Shown one piece after another: positions 1,096 through 54,167 of a DNA stretch of 64,000 nt. Location of the stretch: IMG/VR virus record IMGVR_UViG_3300024046_000025, positions 1 to 64,000 of that record; one strand, given 5' to 3'. A program made the translations under genes and the position numbers. Below the pieces are notes generated by a model. That model saw nothing but the letters and a program-made list of their open reading frames with translations, was not told the DNA's origin and did no database searches. Each line of letters starts with the position of its first letter. The stretch's first letter is position 1. The stretch is from a virus (Duplodnaviria > Caudoviricetes).

Positions 1096-1679
1096 AGGCG
1101 CGGTTTGATGTCGATTACTTTGGCTGCCCACATCAGTGTCACATTTTCCTCGATATGGCCCGTACCAGATATCAGGTTGAATCCGTGCGATCCGCGGCGC
1201 ACCCACTTAATCAGAACACGGTCGTCTGACGTGCCCACCACACAAAGATGGCCTAGCCATTCTTCATCAAAGGGGTTCCTTCGGTTGGCGTAAAATGCTC
1301 GCCAGCCATCGAAGTTTGGCCCCAAACTGTCGCCCACGATATTGACGGCAACGGTGCCCACCGGCGCATCTTCGGGGCCTTCGACCATTTCCGGATCGCC
1401 CGGCCAATGGGTCTCAGAGATAACACCGCCAGCTCCAGCATCTCCCAAAAGAGGAAAACGGCGCGCCGGCGGCGGTTCCTCAAGATATTCTGCCATACGC
1501 GGAATCTCAGGCACCTTGATCTGCCGCGCCCCCTTCATAAGGCTGGTAATCTGTGGGTGGGCAATGCCCAGATGCTCGGCGAGTCCCTTCTGGGTTTTGC
1601 CGGGCTTCTTGAGGCCCTTTCTAATCCAGGCCAGATATCGTTCTGTTTCAGCATCAACCATTGTGCGAATTTCGGACAT
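1092..1679 (-). CDS. cI: CI-type repressor (HTH + S24 peptidase domain)
   Basis: HTH QKGLAEHLGIAHPQITSLMKG; S24 motifs IVGDSL (Ser) and LIKWV (Lys); divergent from cro; start could be 1661. Confidence 0.9.
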   Translation of the reverse strand: MSEIRTMVDAETERYLAWIRKGLKKPGKTQKGLAEHLGIAHPQITSLMKGARQIKVPEIPRMAEYLEEPPPARRFPLLGDAGAGGVISETHWPGDPEMVEGPEDAPVGTVAVNIVGDSLGPNFDGWRAFYANRRNPFDEEWLGHLCVVGTSDDRVLIKWVRRGSHGFNLISGTGHIEENVTLMWAAKVIDIKPRL

Positions 1680-1693
1680 AGCGCCGAAAACGC

Positions 1694-1748
1694 CTATTAG
1701 CATTATCGTACATTGCCTCTTGTGTTGCTTGTATGAATATCGTACATT
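1694..1748. promoter_or_regulatory. OR-like operator region between cI and cro
   Basis: TATCGTACATT repeated at 1704 and 1738 (34 bp apart); CTTGTA-N9-TACATT at 1728-1748. Confidence 0.75.
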
Positions 1749-2006
1749 ATGGCTATGCGATGCGAACCAGCCAATTCAATCATCCAGAAATTCGGCGGCC
1801 TTAGCGCCCTCGCCGAGGTAACGGGCGTTAAGCCGCACACCGTCATGCGCTGGCGTATGCCACGCGATCGTGGCGGCACGGGCGGAGTCATCCCGCACTG
1901 GCACGTTGAGGCTGTGCTTGCCGAAGCCAGGGCCCGGAAAATCAAGCTCGGGTCATCCGATTTTTTCCCCACCCCCACCACCCCCTCCCATGGTGAACGG
2001 GCATGA
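1749..2006 (+). CDS. cro: Cro-like repressor
   Basis: IIQKFGGLSALAEVTGVKPHTVMRWR Cro-type HTH, divergent from cI. Confidence 0.85.
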   Translation: MAMRCEPANSIIQKFGGLSALAEVTGVKPHTVMRWRMPRDRGGTGGVIPHWHVEAVLAEARARKIKLGSSDFFPTPTTPSHGERA

Positions 2007-2311
2007 GCAGGGTTCCCGATATCGGTCATCCGCAGGGCCTCAGCCCGCGCAAGAAGTTCTTCCCCGAGATTGGAGAGGACTGCATCAACATGGATGGCGT
2101 CATCGAGTTGATGCGCTCCATCGACACGCCGCAGGCCAAGGCCATGTACCGCGCCTTTCGCAAGCGCCACGCACAGATGCGTCTCGATCCCCAAGGTCGT
2201 ACTCCCGAGAAAATCCGGGAGGAAGCAGTTCTGGCAGCGCTGGCCGATTGCGGCGCCAACGTCACCTTCACGAAAATCAGCGGCAACATGGGTGGGGGCG
2301 AGCCAGCATGA
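2003..2311 (+). CDS. Hypothetical phage protein
   Basis: ATGA overlaps at both ends. Confidence 0.65.
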   Translation: MSRVPDIGHPQGLSPRKKFFPEIGEDCINMDGVIELMRSIDTPQAKAMYRAFRKRHAQMRLDPQGRTPEKIREEAVLAALADCGANVTFTKISGNMGGGEPA

Positions 2312-3153
2312 GCAGGATAGAGACTCGCTTTCCGATTGTCGCGCTTCCGGATGCGCCGGAGGCCCCGGCCATTCATGGTGCAGTTGGGCGCCTTCAGATG
2401 GTGGAGGTGTCCAAACTCTACGTTGACACCACCTATCAGCGCGCTGTTTCCGCCGGGTCGGTGCGAAACATCAAGCGCATCTGTGCCGCCTTCGATTGGG
2501 CGAAGTTTCTTCCGGTCATCGTCACGTGCGAAGGCGAGACCTATAGCGTCGTGGACGGCCAGCACCGCACGATTGCGGCGGCCACCATCGGGATTGAGGC
2601 GGTTCCTTGCTACGTCCTTTCCTGCTCGGCTTCCGAGGCGGCAGCGGCTTTCGCTGCAATCAACGGCAATGTAACGCCTGTCCAGCCCATTGACCTCTGG
2701 TTCGCAGAGGTGGCGGCCAAAGCGCCGAAGGCTATCTCCCTCCTGCGGGTTCTCGATGCGGCGGGCGTAAAAGTCACTCGGAAGAAAGAGGGCTTCTTGG
2801 TGGGCGAGACCCGCTCCGTGAATGTCCTGGCGCGGGCGCTCGACTTTTATGGCAGCGCCACCCTGACCACCATCCTGCAATGCATCGTTGAATGCGGCGA
2901 CGGCAACCCGGGCATGATTACCGGTGCAGTGGTCAATGGCATTGGCCGCGCCGTCCGCACCAAGACCGATCTCCTGGCTAACCCGTCGAAGCTTTTTGAG
3001 GTTTTCGACGGCATCTCGATCAGCAGCATGGTCTACGAGGCCGGCATTGAGAGCGCCAGAACCGGCAACCCGGTTCAGTTCATTCTGACGCGCCAGATCA
3101 ATCAAGAAATTCGTGATGCTACGGAAGCAGGGAGGCATTCTCATGCAGCCTAG
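2308..3153 (+). CDS. ParB/Srx-like N-terminal domain protein (DUF6551-like)
   Basis: LYVDTTYQR and YSVVDGQHRTIAA motifs. Confidence 0.75.
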   Translation: MSRIETRFPIVALPDAPEAPAIHGAVGRLQMVEVSKLYVDTTYQRAVSAGSVRNIKRICAAFDWAKFLPVIVTCEGETYSVVDGQHRTIAAATIGIEAVPCYVLSCSASEAAAAFAAINGNVTPVQPIDLWFAEVAAKAPKAISLLRVLDAAGVKVTRKKEGFLVGETRSVNVLARALDFYGSATLTTILQCIVECGDGNPGMITGAVVNGIGRAVRTKTDLLANPSKLFEVFDGISISSMVYEAGIESARTGNPVQFILTRQINQEIRDATEAGRHSHAA

Positions 3154-3508
3154 TTGCACATGCCCGCTCTGCGGCACGGACGGCATTGAAATCCCCATCT
3201 CGATATTGCCGGAACGCGGCATGGTGGTGGCGAATGGCAAGTTCGCCATTCTGACCGGCACCGAGGCATTACTGCTCCAGCGTCTTGCAGAGGTGTTCCC
3301 GCGCGTCGTCTCAAAGGAGGCGCTGCTGGAATGGATGTACCAGATCACCCCGGACAAAGAGCCGGAAATCAAGATCATCGACGTGTACGTCTGCAAAATC
3401 AGGAAGAAGATCGAGCCTCTCGGCATCCGCATCGATACGGCCTGGGGCAAGGGATATTCGCTCGCAGCAACGTCGCGCCTGCAAGTTATTCGTGAGGAGG
3501 TGGCGTGA
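3143..3508 (+). CDS. OmpR-type winged-helix protein resembling the CtrA DNA-binding domain, with N-terminal CxCxxC
   Basis: EPEIKIIDVYVCKIRKK...IDTAWGKGY versus CtrA EPELKIIDVFICKLRKK...TVWGRGY; no receiver domain; GGAGG RBS. Confidence 0.8.
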   Translation: MQPSCTCPLCGTDGIEIPISILPERGMVVANGKFAILTGTEALLLQRLAEVFPRVVSKEALLEWMYQITPDKEPEIKIIDVYVCKIRKKIEPLGIRIDTAWGKGYSLAATSRLQVIREEVA

Positions 3509-50452: not shown

Positions 50453-50649
50453 GGTGGTATCCCAAAGGCTACGGCGGCGAACGCCGGGATCCCGAGCAGG
50501 TCAAACGCGAGGGCTGGCAGGAAGAGGGCCTCCTTGCGGTCTCCGCCGATGATGACCGTCTCACCTGGCCCGAGCGTGAGCTGGTCCGGCAGTTGGGCGA
50601 GAAGCTCTACGGCCCGCGCCCCTCGGAAAGGGAGGCACGCCATGGCTGA
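50449..50649 (+). CDS. Hypothetical protein
   Basis: ATGA overlap. Confidence 0.7.
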   Translation: MRWYPKGYGGERRDPEQVKREGWQEEGLLAVSADDDRLTWPERELVRQLGEKLYGPRPSEREARHG

Positions 50650-51022
50650 CCGCATCTGGACCGCCGACGATGTCGCCGACCATTTCGAGGAGGCGTTCCG
50701 CACCCTGCGCAAGCTGCCGCCGGTGAAGGTGCAGGGCTATTTCAACACCTGGCCGGAGATCGTGCGAACGAGTCGCGAGATCGCCTTCATGGAACCCGAG
50801 CCGATGCGCGTCTGGCCCTCGGCCGCCGCGATCACCCGGCTCGAGCAGACCTTCGACTGGGTGCTCTGGATCGAGGAGGCGGAGCGCAAGCTGGTCTGGT
50901 CTCGCGCCGCCCGCGTGCCGTGGAAGCAGATCAGCGGCGAGCTCGGCTGCGACCGCACCACCGCATGGCGGCGCTGGCAGCTCGCGCTCACAAAGATCGC
51001 GGCACGGCTGAATGCGCAGTGA
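50642..51022 (+). CDS. DUF6362-like protein (putative late-gene regulator)
   Basis: TLRKLP..YFNTWP, sigma-R4-like end WKQISGELGCDRTTAWRRW. Confidence 0.7.
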   Translation: MADRIWTADDVADHFEEAFRTLRKLPPVKVQGYFNTWPEIVRTSREIAFMEPEPMRVWPSAAAITRLEQTFDWVLWIEEAERKLVWSRAARVPWKQISGELGCDRTTAWRRWQLALTKIAARLNAQ

Positions 51023-51171
51023 CTCCAATGTGTTGCAACACTTTTCCCTTCGACATCTGCAACATGATCGTGCTATCCGAAGGACAAGATGGGGAGAGTG
51101 CGCCGAAGGGCTCGCTCTCCCCTTTGCATTGATGCGCCTCGCGCCGAAGCCGGCACGTCGGGCGAGTTCGC

Positions 51172-51215
51172 GGGTCCTTCCTCGCGAAAACCGTATGCTG
51201 GCGGGCGAAGCGCGG
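51172..51215 (+). other. Candidate lambda-type cos site (cosQ/cosN-like)
   Basis: GGGTCCT (= lambda cosQ) followed about 21 bp later by TGGCGGGCGAAGCGCG. Confidence 0.55.
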
Positions 51216-51367
51216 CGCATCGCCAGCGACAGGGCCGGATTTTTGGGAAGCCACCCGGAAGCCGGAGTCGCCTGAACCCGCCTGAAACACTGCAAATTCA
51301 AACCCTTGATGCTGGACTCCGGGGGCCGGAAGCCAAGGGTATCCACCCGACCGAGGAACCACGCCAC

Positions 51368-52750
51368 ATGACGCTGAGCTTCTCCCCGGACGCGATCGAG
51401 ATGTGGCCGCTGTCGCGCCTGCAGCCCTACGCGAAGAACGCGAAAGCACATGGCGCGGACCAGGTCGTGAAGATCGCCGCCAGCATGGCCGAGTTCGGCT
51501 GGACCGTGCCGTGCCTGGTGGCAGAGGACGGGGAGCTGATCGCTGGCCATGGACGGGTGCTGGCCGCGACGCAGCTGGGGCTGACGGAAGCGCCAGTGAT
51601 TGTGCTGGGTCACCTGACCGAGGCGCAGCGCCGGGCCTATCGCATCGCGGACAACAAGCTGACGGAACTGGGCAACTGGGACGAGGCGCTGCTGTCGGCG
51701 GAACTGAACGAGTTGCTGGCCGAGGATTTCGACCTGTCGCTGGTCGGCTTCTCGGATGGCGAGTTGGACAAACTCTTGGCATTCGTGCCGGAGGGGGACA
51801 GTGAAGACAGTGGCGCCGGAGGCTCCGTGCCGCCGGTGACCATCCCCGAGCCGCCGCGCAACCCGGCGTCGCGCACCGGCGATCTCTGGATCCTTGGTGA
51901 GCATCGTCTGTTCTGCGGTGACGCGACCTCCAATGCCGATGTCCGCCGTCTGATGAACGGCGAGCGCGCGGTGCTGTTCGCCACCGATCCGCCGTACCTC
52001 GTCGATTACGACGGCTCCAACCATCCGACGCGCAACAAGGACTGGTCGGCGTCCTACGGCACGACCTGGGACGACAGTTCTCAGGGCGCGGAGCTCTACG
52101 ACGGCTTCATCGCTGCGGCGGTGGCCGAGGCGATCACCGAGGATGCGGCGTGGTATTGCTGGCACGCTTCCCGCCGCCAGGCGATGCTTGAGGCCTGCTG
52201 GGAGAAGGCGGGCGCCTTCGTGCACCAGCAGATCATCTGGGTGAAGGATCGCGGAGTTCTGACCCGGTCGCATTACCTCTGGAAGCACGAGCCCTGCTTC
52301 ATGGGCTGGCGCAGACCGAACCGCCCGCCAAAGGTGGCCGAGGAAACGCTGCCATCGACATGGGCGCTGCCGAACTTTGCCAAGGACGACCGGCCCGACC
52401 ACCCGACGCCAAAGCCGCTGGACGCCTTCGGGATCCCGATGCGCCAGCATGTGGCGCGGGGCGGGCTCTGCTACGAGCCGTTCTCGGGCTCCGGGTCGCA
52501 GATCATGGCGGGCGAGGCGAACGGCCGCCGCGTCTTCGCGATGGAGATCAGCCCGGCCTATGTCGACGTGGCCGTCGAGCGCTGGCAGGCTGAGACCGAC
52601 AAGGACGCAATCCTCGACGGTGACGGGCGGACCTTCGCGCAGGTGAAAGCCGAGCGGCTGGGCGACGACGCTGAAGCCCCGGCCGATGCCGCAGCCCCGG
52701 ACGCCGACACCGCCCCAGAACCCGCCCGCAAACGCAAATCCGCAGCCTGA
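51368..52750 (+). CDS. ParB-like domain / N6A-N4C DNA methyltransferase fusion
   Basis: LIAGHGR..AYRIADNKL; TDPPY; HPTPKP; YEPFSGSGS. Confidence 0.92.
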   Translation: MTLSFSPDAIEMWPLSRLQPYAKNAKAHGADQVVKIAASMAEFGWTVPCLVAEDGELIAGHGRVLAATQLGLTEAPVIVLGHLTEAQRRAYRIADNKLTELGNWDEALLSAELNELLAEDFDLSLVGFSDGELDKLLAFVPEGDSEDSGAGGSVPPVTIPEPPRNPASRTGDLWILGEHRLFCGDATSNADVRRLMNGERAVLFATDPPYLVDYDGSNHPTRNKDWSASYGTTWDDSSQGAELYDGFIAAAVAEAITEDAAWYCWHASRRQAMLEACWEKAGAFVHQQIIWVKDRGVLTRSHYLWKHEPCFMGWRRPNRPPKVAEETLPSTWALPNFAKDDRPDHPTPKPLDAFGIPMRQHVARGGLCYEPFSGSGSQIMAGEANGRRVFAMEISPAYVDVAVERWQAETDKDAILDGDGRTFAQVKAERLGDDAEAPADAAAPDADTAPEPARKRKSAA

Positions 52751-52754
52751 GGCC

Positions 52755-53936
52755 ATGCATGACCTGGCTCTACCTTCCTCCGGACGCGCTTCCGGAGCCG
52801 GAGACGCATGCCTGTTCGGCCTCTCCCTCTGCTCCGGCGCGGGCGGGCTCGACCTCGGACTCGCCATCGCCATCCCCAGATATCGTGCTGTGGGCCATGT
52901 CGAACGGGAAACCTACGCCGCAGCCATCCTCGTGGCGCGGATGGAAGACGCGTCCCTGGATCCGGCACCTGTCTGGGACGACGTTGGAACCTTCGACGGC
53001 CGCCCGTGGCGCGGCACGGTGGACATCATCACTGCGGGCTATCCGTGCCAGCCGTTCTCCGTCGCGGGCAAACGCCGGGGCGCCGGCGATCCGCGCCATA
53101 TCTGGCCACATGTCGCCCGGATCATCGGCGAGGTCGAGCCGCCCTTCGTCTTCCTCGAGAACGTCGCCCATCATCTCCGCCTCGGCTTTCCTGAAGTCGC
53201 CAGCGGACTGGTCGGCATGGGCTACCACCTTGCGGCAGGCCTCTTCACGGCGGCGGAAGTCGGCGCGCCCCACAGGCGTGAGCGGCTCTTCATCCTCGCG
53301 ATCCGCGAGGGAGATGAACTGGCCAACCCCGCGCGCCTGCTCTGGAACCCGGTCGAGTGGCGGCAACCGGACCGAATTGCTGCAGCTCTGGCCGACGCCC
53401 CGGGCCAGCGCGAACGAGAACCGGCAGACGAAGCCGACGCCCTCGCAGGAAGTGGGTCAGCACGGGATGAACCTCGCGACGACGGCGGCGTTATGGCCGA
53501 CGCCGCAGACCGACAGTTTTCGCAGCCGGGGTGGCGACCGAAAGGACGAGAAGGGCCTGGACCGCATGGCGCGGGACTGGCCGACGCCGATGGCGAACGA
53601 CGGGTGCAAGCCGAGCGCCGGCAACCGCCGGACGGCCGACCTGACCCATGCGGCGGGGATATGGATGACGCCGACGGCGCGCGACCACAAGGATGGGGCG
53701 ACGACGTTGGTGAATACGCCGGTGAACGGCCTGCTTGGCCGCCAGGTCCTGGTGACGCCCATGGCTGGGAACGATATCTCCGAAGCGCGCCGGACCTTGA
53801 ACCCGCTGTTCGTCGAGGCGCTGATGGGCTGGCCCACCGGGTGGACCGGCTTCGGCTCTGTGGCAACGGAGTGGTCCCGCTGGTTGCGGCGCATGCGCTC
53901 AGAACTCTTGCAGCTGAATTGCTGGCCGATGGGTGA
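52755..53936 (+). CDS. C5 cytosine methyltransferase, alpha polypeptide (motifs I-VIII and X)
   Basis: LCSGAGG, AGYPCQPFS, FLENV, APHRRERLF, RLRLCGNGVVP. Confidence 0.9.
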   Translation: MHDLALPSSGRASGAGDACLFGLSLCSGAGGLDLGLAIAIPRYRAVGHVERETYAAAILVARMEDASLDPAPVWDDVGTFDGRPWRGTVDIITAGYPCQPFSVAGKRRGAGDPRHIWPHVARIIGEVEPPFVFLENVAHHLRLGFPEVASGLVGMGYHLAAGLFTAAEVGAPHRRERLFILAIREGDELANPARLLWNPVEWRQPDRIAAALADAPGQREREPADEADALAGSGSARDEPRDDGGVMADAADRQFSQPGWRPKGREGPGPHGAGLADADGERRVQAERRQPPDGRPDPCGGDMDDADGARPQGWGDDVGEYAGERPAWPPGPGDAHGWERYLRSAPDLEPAVRRGADGLAHRVDRLRLCGNGVVPLVAAHALRTLAAELLADG

Positions 53937-53952
53937 AGGTGCGCCGGCATGA
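52759..53952 (+). CDS. Overlapping +1-frame ORF: putative MTase beta polypeptide (WPTP repeats + motif IX)
   Basis: Five W(P/M)TP repeats and LNPLFVEALMGWPTGWT; stop overlaps next gene start. Confidence 0.7.
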   Translation: MTWLYLPPDALPEPETHACSASPSAPARAGSTSDSPSPSPDIVLWAMSNGKPTPQPSSWRGWKTRPWIRHLSGTTLEPSTAARGAARWTSSLRAIRASRSPSRANAGAPAIRAISGHMSPGSSARSSRPSSSSRTSPIISASAFLKSPADWSAWATTLRQASSRRRKSARPTGVSGSSSSRSAREMNWPTPRACSGTRSSGGNRTELLQLWPTPRASANENRQTKPTPSQEVGQHGMNLATTAALWPTPQTDSFRSRGGDRKDEKGLDRMARDWPTPMANDGCKPSAGNRRTADLTHAAGIWMTPTARDHKDGATTLVNTPVNGLLGRQVLVTPMAGNDISEARRTLNPLFVEALMGWPTGWTGFGSVATEWSRWLRRMRSELLQLNCWPMGEGAPA

Positions 53953-54167
53953 AGCAGTCGCGCCTCATGTCGCTGATCGAAGCCATCGCCAACGTGGCCG
54001 TCGGTTATGGCGTCGCCGTGGTCGCGCAGATCCTGATCTTTCCTATCTTCGGGCTGCATACGACGCTGGTGCAGAACCTGAAGATGGGCGCGGTGTTCAC
54101 CATCGTGTCGATCGCCCGTTCGTTTGCCTTGCGGCGGCTGTTCGAGGCGATGCGGGGGAATAAATAA
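53949..54167 (+). CDS. Small membrane protein following MTases
   Basis: MKQSRLMSLIEAIANV...RSFALRRLFE. Confidence 0.75.
   Translation: MKQSRLMSLIEAIANVAVGYGVAVVAQILIFPIFGLHTTLVQNLKMGAVFTIVSIARSFALRRLFEAMRGNK

Follow-up and report, generated by a model that had tools for sequence, protein, structure and literature searches.

A prophage cytosine methyltransferase gene kept readable in two overlapping frames, with the recognition part most likely encoded in the second

One 1.2-kb stretch of a prophage is kept readable in two overlapping frames on the same strand, one encoding the catalytic body of a DNA cytosine methyltransferase (MTase) and the other most likely its DNA-recognition part, a split that has been shown experimentally so far only for the Escherichia coli enzyme M.EcoHK31I and that is half-missed by annotation. 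The window analyzed was a 64,000-nt stretch of DNA (positions 1 to 64,000 of the IMG/VR record IMGVR_UViG_3300024046_000025). Comparison of 80 homologous loci showed that the frame under selection switches sharply along the gene, from frame A to frame B, then to both frames, and back to frame A. We consider a two-chain C5-MTase, with translation, association, and activity inferred, to be the likeliest reading, with a probability of roughly two in three (0.68).

Layout of the locus

An earlier note, made from the sequence alone, had described two fully overlapping reading frames starting at ATGCATG, C5-MTase motifs I, IV, VI, VIII, and X in frame A, and five W(P/M)TP repeats and a motif IX-like sequence in frame B. 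This observation is real, and all of its sequence statements were confirmed. The features of the locus are as follows (A and B denote codons or residues of the respective frames; A1, A2, and A3 denote frame A codon positions, A1 being also the third position of frame B).

52748..52761 (+): stop of the upstream ParB-N6/N4 MTase gene (TGA, 52748-52750), followed by the tandem out-of-frame starts ATGCATG (52755-52761)
52755..53936 (+): frame A ORF (alpha, 393 aa), C5-MTase large-domain chain
52759..53952 (+): frame B ORF (beta, 397 aa), +1 relative to A, starting 4 nt after it
52755..53318 (+): segment with frame A under selection (motifs I, IV, VI, VIII) and frame B as an unconstrained Ser/Arg-rich leader
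53314..53316 (+): internal ATG in frame B (M186), a possible alternative beta start
53319..53732 (+): segment with frame B under selection (W-x-T-P units, putative TRD) and frame A as an unconstrained linker
53320..53673 (+): five W-x-T-P units, with W at B residues 188, 211, 246, 274, and 302 (nt 53320, 53389, 53494, 53578, and 53662)
53484..53567 (+): one 28-codon unit precisely absent in 365-aa natural variants
53733..53852 (+): doubly constrained overlap, alpha AWPPGP...W and PDLEPAVRRGADGLAHRVDRL over beta LLGRQV and RRTLNPLFVEALMGWPTGWTG (motif-IX-like, 53788-53850)
53853..53936 (+): frame A under selection again, with motif X (CGNGVVP, 53859-53879) and the C-terminal helix
53949..53952 (+): ATGA, in which the frame B stop overlaps the start of the next gene (DUF7220, 53949-54167; E 2.7e-34)

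Frame A contains motif I (FGLSLCSGAGGLDLG), motif IV (GYPCQPFS), motif VI (FLENV), motif VIII (PHRRERLFILA), and motif X (CGNGVVP, A369-375). Pfam PF00145 matches residues 23-194 only (E 7e-32, profile positions 4-169 of 324), a canonical HMM built here gives 100 bits, and phrog_363 matches residues 23-385. Motif X aligns to the canonical aykqiGnAVp in the canonical HMM, although weakly on its own. Alpha has thousands of homologs, the best 120 being 78-96% identical and mostly 393 aa long. An AlphaFold2 model of alpha was poor (pLDDT 47.5, about 27 over residues 199-328), and its Foldseek hits, with M.HaeIII (1dct) and M.HhaI first over about 175-185 aligned columns and DNMT1 also found, only confirm the large-domain fold.

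Frame B carries WPTP at residues 188, 211, 246, and 274, WMTP at 302, and LNPLFVEALMGWPTGWT at 347-363. A profile of its C-terminal half finds 32,924 cluster representatives at E<=1e-3. In contrast, searches aimed at identifying beta gave little: Pfam found nothing, a PDB sequence search with the beta profile returned only chance hits to the MS2 coat protein, the ESM Atlas gave scores of 0.83-0.84, below the level at which a hit counts, and a tblastn search of phage records gave only 4 hits because of low-complexity filtering. The AlphaFold2 model of beta 186-397 had a pLDDT of 63 and a pTM of 0.26, with only the motif-IX helix and the C-terminal helix confident. PHROGs places the C-terminal piece in families of unknown function (phrog_27243, phrog_26627), whereas phrog_1008, annotated as a methyltransferase family, covers beta and motif X.

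The expression signals are conserved among the close loci. ATG-N-ATG is present in 80 of 80, a long upstream ORF ends in TGA 1-4 nt before ATG(A) in 79 of 80, and the frame B stop forms ATGA with the next gene in 76 of 80, plus one GTGA. The distant locus L001 has the same +4 geometry of starts (TTGGATG). As the earlier note had predicted, annotation misses frame B: the named database entries we saw for frame A call it a DNA cytosine methyltransferase, while frame B appears only sporadically as 'hypothetical' or as chimeras.

Selection on the two frames

In 81 aligned genes (89-95% DNA identity to the window gene), mean diversity at A1/A2/A3 is 0.039/0.030/0.146 in codons 11-188, 0.206/0.046/0.036 in codons 189-326, and 0.060/0.015/0.141 in codons 367-393, with sharp switch points at 188/189 and 366/367. 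Between the last two segments, A327-338 and A346-366 are near-invariant in all three phases; the B-synonymous phase drops to 0.038 in A327-338 and 0.046 in A346-366, compared with 0.206 in the B-only segment. Both peptide motifs of this overlap, the motif-IX-like block of B and the WPPGP/RVDRL block of A, are also kept in distant loci, and one chain cannot use both readings.

The region is 68% GC, and long spurious ORFs abound here, including a 770-aa antisense ORF at 50561-52873, so that an open alternative frame alone means little. However, the view that frame B is non-coding, its openness being a by-product of GC content and selection on frame A, is already contradicted by the codon-phase data and is highly improbable: for 138 codons the substitutions fall on the first codon position of frame A, which is the third of frame B, and this is impossible under selection on frame A only. 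Moreover, the third frame carries 3-10 stops, and the layout persists at 59-64% GC in two phages.

Both frames stay open in 77 of 80 close loci and in all five distant loci examined (L001, L003, L004, and two sequenced phages). In 12 other genes of the same provirus the +1 frame is open over 183 codons in only 1.8% of sliding windows, and in 30 canonical single-frame PF00145 genes it has 7-38 stops, with a longest open run of 133 codons. Within codons 1-188, Leu/Val codons followed by an A-initial codon never end in G or A (0 of 111), and alpha codons 1-188 contain none of the Leu/Val plus A-initial contexts that occur at 2.9 per 100 codons in the other genes. By synonymous shuffling alone, the openness of frame B in the N-terminal half is not significant (P 0.10-0.50), and the case rests on the empirical and canonical-gene controls. 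For frame A in the B-selected segment, the chance of staying open in synonymous shuffles is 0.074, 0.012, 0.003, 0.016, 0.026, and 0.002 in the six loci tested, with the third frame carrying the expected 3-10 stops. T is used 0 of 1602 times at 37 B-synonymous sites where it would create a frame A stop, against 6.2% at other such sites; the shuffles and the stop-avoidance counts show that frame A is kept open by selection. In phage phiKX1, frame A stays open across beta and across an HNH gene before it reaches motif X.

The W-x-T-P region was also examined for the repeat-expandable specificity proposed in the earlier note, for which support is only weak. The region is not a tandem, slippage-prone DNA repeat, since TRF finds no array and only 11-18-nt dispersed direct repeats are present, and the unit count is 5 in 75 of 80 close loci, so rapid repeat-number switching is not indicated. 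Even so, 365-aa variants lacking exactly one 28-codon unit exist (BLASTP of P0001 against P0088 shows a single 28-residue gap at A244-271; 84 nt preserves both frames), and distant lineages carry 2-10 units, showing that the region is modular on evolutionary time; any link to specificity remains hypothetical. The last unit (TPTARDHKDG..LV) resembles the canonical TRD-core consensus (TLSARYGKDG..LV), but the score is not significant.

A probable two-chain enzyme from one piece of DNA

In the reading we favor, alpha supplies the large, AdoMet-binding and catalytic domain, comprising motifs I-VIII, a roughly 140-residue linker with no amino-acid constraint, the conserved WPPGP...RVDRL segment, and motif X. 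Beta would supply the small domain, with an unconstrained Ser/Arg-rich leader of about 185 residues followed by a putative target-recognition region of five W-x-T-P units, a motif-IX-like helix, and a short C-terminal helix. Ribosomes finishing the upstream ParB-fused amino-methyltransferase gene would stop at a TGA 4 nt before the first ATG (1 nt in most relatives) and restart on either of two ATGs 4 nt apart, so both chains would come from one mRNA; those in frame B would terminate on ATGA and pass on to the next gene. The two chains would then associate as the large and small domains of M.HhaI or M.HaeIII do within one chain, and the enzyme would methylate phage or host DNA, presumably to escape restriction. 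What the analysis demonstrates is that both frames are under purifying selection in complementary segments and that both are kept open, whereas translation of both chains, their association, the need for both, their activity, and the role of beta as TRD plus motif IX are inferred. About 185 residues of beta and about 140 of alpha would be unconstrained passenger sequence, which is an odd cost. Charge complementarity between the alpha linker and the beta leader was considered and rejected, as the net charge of the linker varies from -30 to +15 among the five loci where it could be measured and no consistent property emerges.

The interpretation offered in the earlier note, an extreme M.EcoHK31I-like enzyme with a repeat-expandable recognition region in the second frame, is thus partly supported: the coding signal does switch frames and back, both ORFs are conserved, and M.EcoHK31I is the right precedent (PMC2836561, PMC3404938), whereas variation of specificity by repeat number is only weakly supported, and the production and association of two separate proteins are inferred. 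The term 'motif IX' rests on pattern and collinearity. The best hhalign hit of the beta profile on canonical MTases, and its only hit on 30 of them, falls on motif IX and in the right order relative to X, RRTLNPLFVEALMGWPTGW aligning to the canonical RRLTPRECARLQGFPDSF, but the statistical support is weak (P 0.06 and 0.0056).

It is also possible, although unlikely, that frame B is a real overprinted protein but not an MTase subunit, for example an independent DNA-binding or anti-defence protein, with alpha working alone or with another partner. The lack of significant Pfam or PDB sequence matches, the weak motif-IX and TRD-core resemblances, and the PHROGs families of unknown function favor this view. 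On the other hand, alpha has no selected sequence where TRD and IX belong, the only selected sequence between motifs VIII and IX being in frame B, yet its catalytic motifs are strongly conserved, and it therefore needs a recognition part from somewhere. In addition, the beta-like sequences examined came from such two-frame MTase loci or, where only the protein was checked, carried no other domain, and the profile-profile hit on motif IX and the coverage of phrog_1008 point the same way.

A single canonical chain could in principle be made by two programmed frameshifts, +1 just after motif VIII and -1 just after motif IX, joining A1-188, B187-364, and A367-393 in the normal order. The three selected segments are collinear with a canonical C5-MTase, the switch points are sharp, and the 63 nt before the second switch are almost invariant, as a recoding signal might be. 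However, we regard this as very unlikely. Neither junction has a slippery motif shared by the six loci compared, and the SD-like GAGGGAG before the first junction varies at its third positions (diversity 0.49-0.54). A shifted ribosome needs neither frame A open in the middle nor frame B open in the first half, yet both are kept open to the end; both readings of A327-366 are conserved as peptides in distant loci; the paired starts and the ATGA at the frame B stop would have no purpose; and in phiKX1 about 500 nt of HNH gene lie between IX and X. Joining the three selected segments in silico neither extended the canonical-HMM match nor raised its score, as the variable TRD carries no signal and motif IX is too short. 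Among natural sequences, the PF00145-bearing frame B hits inspected are chimeras that shift frame at scattered positions, as expected from indels or assembly errors, and ten long beta-like proteins (558-1044 aa) carry no Pfam domain.

A further alternative, likewise unlikely, is that there are two chains but beta starts internally at the ATG at 53314 (M186) or nearby, the upstream 185 codons of frame B being open but untranslated. Selection on frame B begins exactly at B186/187, and this ATG is conserved in the 80 close loci (diversity <=0.05), its T being a frame A synonymous site yet nearly fixed (diversity 0.05) while neighboring synonymous sites vary at 0.49-0.54; the proven M.EcoHK31I beta is also nested (PMC2836561). 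The conserved ATG leaves the true beta start open. However, M186 is Thr or Ala in wider relatives, no Met is found at this place in L001, L003, or the locus L087, and the SD-like bases sit 0-3 nt from the ATG and are not conserved. This view also leaves unexplained why the first 185 codons of frame B are free of stops in every locus examined and why the starts are paired.

A more far-reaching view, which we hold only tentatively, is that both full-length ORFs are translated from the paired starts by termination-reinitiation, giving a heterodimer split exactly at the large-domain/small-domain boundary, in which each chain carries a long passenger segment that exists only because the other frame is coding there. 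This would be a completely dual-coded 1.2-kb same-strand gene pair and the normal state of a very large phage and prophage MTase family, with a recognition chain built from W-x-T-P modules gained or lost as 28-codon units without breaking either frame.

If two chains are made, a very large group of phage and prophage 'DNA cytosine methyltransferase' entries describe only half an enzyme, the recognition half being absent from protein databases or mislabelled as hypothetical. This would affect prediction of methylation specificity, heterologous expression of these enzymes (a codon-optimised alpha gene would destroy beta), and counts of orphan MTases in viromes. The locus is also an unusually long and clearly selected same-strand overlap, in which selection can be seen handing over from one frame to the other and acting on both at once, and a natural template for split enzymes cut at the domain boundary, which is relevant to designs for targeted methylation, the use made of M.EcoHK31I in PMC2836561.

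Comparison with known C5 methyltransferases

Full-text literature searches found M.EcoHK31I and M.AquI but no description of the layout reported here. Both are active two-chain C5-MTases, and fragments of monomeric enzymes complement each other (PMC2836561, PMC3404938). Compared with canonical monomeric C5-MTases (M.HhaI, M.HaeIII; PF00145), motifs I, IV, VI, VIII, and X are recognizable in alpha, and the order of the selected segments (I-VIII, TRD-like, IX-like, X) is canonical. However, canonical genes hold everything in one frame, alpha matches only about the first half of the profile and carries no TRD or motif IX under selection in its own frame, and none of the 30 canonical genes has a W-x-T-P unit. 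The multispecific C5-MTases of Bacillus phages (SPR, phi3T, rho11s) likewise have a variable region of several consecutive recognition modules, but they are single chains in which each module has a proven specificity, whereas the W-x-T-P units have no known specificity, are much shorter (about 23-35 residues), and lie in a second frame.

M.AquI (CYCGRG; Karreman and de Waard 1990; Pinarbasi et al. 2002, as cited in PMC3404938) is a natural two-chain C5-MTase split within or after the variable region, the small subunit having the rest plus IX and X. Here, motif X stays with alpha and the two ORFs overlap over their whole length, although phrog_1008, whose profile covers a beta-like body, IX, and X, hints that an AquI-like split may also occur among relatives.

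In M.EcoHK31I (E. coli, YGGCCR; Lee, Kam and Shaw 1995, as described in PMC2836561 and PMC3404938), motif IX is not in the main chain but is encoded in another frame of the same DNA, alpha carries I-VIII and X, and the two polypeptides are needed for activity. Its beta gene is nested within that of alpha and carries motif IX only, with the TRD remaining in alpha. In the locus described here, frame B is co-extensive with frame A (397 against 393 codons, starts 4 nt apart) and carries the whole putative TRD as well as the motif-IX-like block, so the split follows the large-domain/small-domain boundary.

Genomic setting and the two reading frames

The locus belongs to a 77,510-bp IMG/VR provirus, which is rated complete by CheckV, and lies at the end of a replication module that comprises, upstream, genes encoding a ResIII/DEAD helicase, a PD-(D/E)XK nuclease, and an AAA_25 protein. 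Downstream of the locus are genes encoding DUF7220 and DUF3489 proteins, the gpA terminase, a lambda-type portal, and a capsid protein. The features considered here are as follows:

51089-52750: ParB_N + N6_N4 amino-methyltransferase fusion gene, immediately upstream
52755: ATGCATG, which opens frame A (alpha, 393 aa, stop at 53936) and frame B (beta, 397 aa, stop at 53952)
53314: ATG within frame B, a possible internal start of beta
53949-54167: gene for a small DUF7220 protein (72 aa, probably membrane-bound), starting in the ATGA that ends frame B
50561-52873 (- strand): 770-codon antisense ORF across the ParB-MTase gene and the start of the C5-MTase, not treated as a gene

Frame A matches PF00145 over residues 23-194 only (profile positions 4-169 of 324) and ends with CGNGVVP, whereas frame B has no Pfam match but contains W-x-T-P at residues 188, 211, 246, 274, and 302, and LNPLFVEALMGWPTGWT at residues 347-363. 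The sequence features described in the earlier note, namely two overlapping frames with a coding signal that switches from one to the other and back, were confirmed. Since the region is 68% GC, openness alone proves nothing, and the antisense ORF shows how long spurious ORFs become at this GC content; for this reason, openness was examined against controls.

Selection on both frames

We aligned the gene with 80 homologous loci from bacterial genomes (89-95% DNA identity to it) and calculated the mean column diversity at the three positions of frame-A codons (A1, A2, A3), A1 being also the third position of frame-B codons. The A1/A2/A3 values were 0.039/0.030/0.146 for A-codons 11-188, 0.206/0.046/0.036 for codons 189-326, and 0.060/0.015/0.141 for codons 367-393. 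Frame A is thus the selected frame first, then frame B for 138 codons, and then frame A again, with hand-overs falling within one or two codons, at 188/189 and 366/367. This excludes a GC artefact and selection on frame A alone, and we consider a non-coding frame B highly improbable.

Two stretches, A327-338 (AWPPGP..W over beta's LLGRQV) and A346-366 (PDLEPAVRRGADGLAHRVDRL over beta's RRTLNPLFVEALMGWPTGWTG), are almost invariant in all three phases. The B-synonymous phase falls to 0.046 in A346-366 and to 0.038 in A327-338, from 0.206 in the B-only segment. Both peptide patterns recur in loci that share only 37-48% alpha identity, and in a cyanophage; two readings of the same nucleotides are therefore each conserved as protein. 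In the distant loci L003 and L004, and similarly in L001, a second doubly coded patch exists at the 5' junction, where beta's first W-x-T unit is written over alpha's motif VIII strand (alpha RLFILAYREG over beta GSSSWPTVRA); the family of the locus studied here has lost that unit.

Among the close relatives, 77 of 80 loci have A of 391-395 codons and B of 394-399 codons. The exceptions are L019, in which frame B is cut to 328 codons, and two MAG loci that break one frame each, L040 (A at 327 codons) and L069 (B at 387 codons); L040 has about 4x coverage, so assembly error is as likely as decay. L019 is one of three copies of the two-frame gene carried on different scaffolds by one genome, Ruixingdingia sedimenti LG-4 (L008, L019, L043). 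Five distant loci also keep both frames open, namely L001, L003, and L004 (B up to 573 codons, A up to 626), Synechococcus phage Yong-M2-251 (OM868082.1), and Komagataeibacter phage phiKX1 (LC644975.1).

When synonymous frame-B codons were shuffled in six loci, frame A stayed open across the B-selected segment in only 7.4, 1.2, 0.3, 1.6, 2.6, and 0.2% of shuffles, while the third frame showed the expected 3-10 stops. In the close family, T is never used at 37 four-fold frame-B sites where it would create a frame-A stop (0 of 1602), compared with 6.2% at other such sites. For frame B across the A-selected half, the shuffle test is weak (P 0.10-0.50), because alpha's amino-acid sequence already avoids the risky contexts. 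Alpha codons 1-188 contain no Leu/Val codon followed by an A-initial codon, whereas such contexts occur at 2.9 per 100 codons in 13 other genes of the provirus, where 64% of them end in G or A; in the family, the few such sites always end in C or T (111 of 111). Empirically, the +1 frame is open over 183 codons in 1.8% of windows in the other genes. Moreover, 30 canonical single-frame PF00145 genes from Alphaproteobacteria have 7-38 stops in the +1 frame, and the five with GC of 0.60 or more have 7-13 (the unpublished genome G045 was excluded). The same dichotomy holds in five whole genomes: eight loci whose PF00145 match covers only about profile positions 4-170 have a +1 frame open for 1091-1335 nt, whereas the three of the four more fully matching loci that were picked up by our motif pattern have 174-300 nt.

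Expression signals and the predicted role of beta

ATG-N-ATG is present in 80 of 80 loci. A long upstream ORF ends in TGA 1 nt (74 loci) to 4 nt before ATG(A) in 79 of 80 loci, the distance being 4 nt in the locus studied here, where the upstream gene encodes the ParB_N + N6_N4 fusion; the same neighbour and coupling recur in 79 of 80 loci, so the two methyltransferases travel as a pair. L001 has the same +4 geometry, with TTG for frame A, and in four of the five distant loci the two starts lie within 10 nt of each other. The stop of frame B, not that of frame A, overlaps the ATG of the next gene as ATGA in 76 of 80 loci, and most of these downstream ORFs are 71-78 aa long. From these signals we infer coupled restart on either ATG, and onward coupling from frame B. 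The exact beta start is less certain, as ATG 53314 is conserved in the close family but not beyond it.

All specific DNA contacts come from the small domain (PMC3404938). Alpha has selected sequence only for the large-domain parts, whereas beta has selected sequence exactly where the small domain should be. The beta profile gave a single local hit against a profile of 30 canonical enzymes, which fell on motif IX with weak support (P 0.06) and extended over 68 columns when a sub-alignment was used (P 0.0056). A canonical HMM placed beta's block at positions 284-307 and alpha's motif X at 313-335, which is the canonical order. The last unit of beta (TPTARDHKDG..LV) resembles the canonical TRD-core consensus (TLSARYGKDG..LV), although without significance. 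These resemblances are consistent with the assignment of beta as the small domain but are weak, so that the motif-IX assignment is only tentative, and the predicted models of the single chains were poor. A profile of the beta region found 32,924 cluster representatives at E<=1e-3 (14,213 at 1e-10), and ten long members carry no Pfam domain. In addition, three database proteins, named TIR-domain protein or carrying transposase (PF01548) or portal (PF05136) Pfam domains (P0141, P0189, P0192), have 31-58% of beta's C-terminal half at 78-91% identity and look like gene-call or assembly chimeras at contig ends.

A +1 then -1 frameshift would give a canonical chain, but the evidence is against it. 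The junctions share no slippery motif across the six loci, and the SD-like run at the first junction is not conserved. Frameshifting explains neither the maintained openness of both frames, nor the doubly conserved 40 codons, nor the paired starts, nor the ATGA. In phage phiKX1 (LC644975.1), the 548-codon frame-A MTase ORF (1535-3181), which is not annotated in the GenBank record, stays open across the beta gene (1545-2669) and then across an HNH endonuclease gene (2673-3191) that lies in beta's frame, before it reaches motif X; the record annotates only part of beta, as a hypothetical protein.

The most likely reading, to which we assign a probability of about 0.68, is that the locus encodes two chains that form one enzyme, with the 5' start favoured for beta. 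The same pair with an internal beta start is unlikely, as is a beta that is a real protein with another role, and frameshifting is more doubtful still. Selection on each frame in its own segments, and the maintenance of both open frames, are demonstrated by the sequence comparisons, whereas expression of the two chains, their binding to each other, their methylation activity, and the role of beta in recognition are inferred.

Modularity of the repeat region and comparison with known enzymes

The interpretation offered in the earlier note, a split enzyme whose recognition region could expand by repeats and thereby vary in specificity, is only partly supported, since the switch of selection between two conserved frames is borne out but rapid repeat-number switching is not indicated. 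There is no tandem DNA repeat, and only dispersed copies of TGGCCGACGCC are present. The unit count is 5 in 75 of 80 loci. The 365-aa relatives lack exactly A244-271, which is one 28-codon unit between two such copies and is in phase for both frames, and other lineages carry 2-10 units. The region is therefore modular over evolutionary time but is not a contingency locus, and any link between unit number and specificity is hypothetical.

Full-text literature searches found no paper describing this layout. The published two-chain C5-MTases are M.EcoHK31I, in which beta is nested in another frame and carries motif IX only, with the TRD in alpha, and M.AquI (PMC2836561, PMC3404938). An AquI-like split may also occur among some phage relatives, which may hold motifs IX and X in one frame, as the profile phrog_1008 (annotated as a DNA methyltransferase family), compared with 53002-53915, matches frame B over 53002-53517, 53560-53706, and 53788-53847 (the putative motif IX), and frame A over 53838-53915 (motif X). 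The locus studied here differs from the published enzymes in three ways: the ORFs are co-extensive, the whole putative recognition domain is in the second frame, and the design is family-wide.
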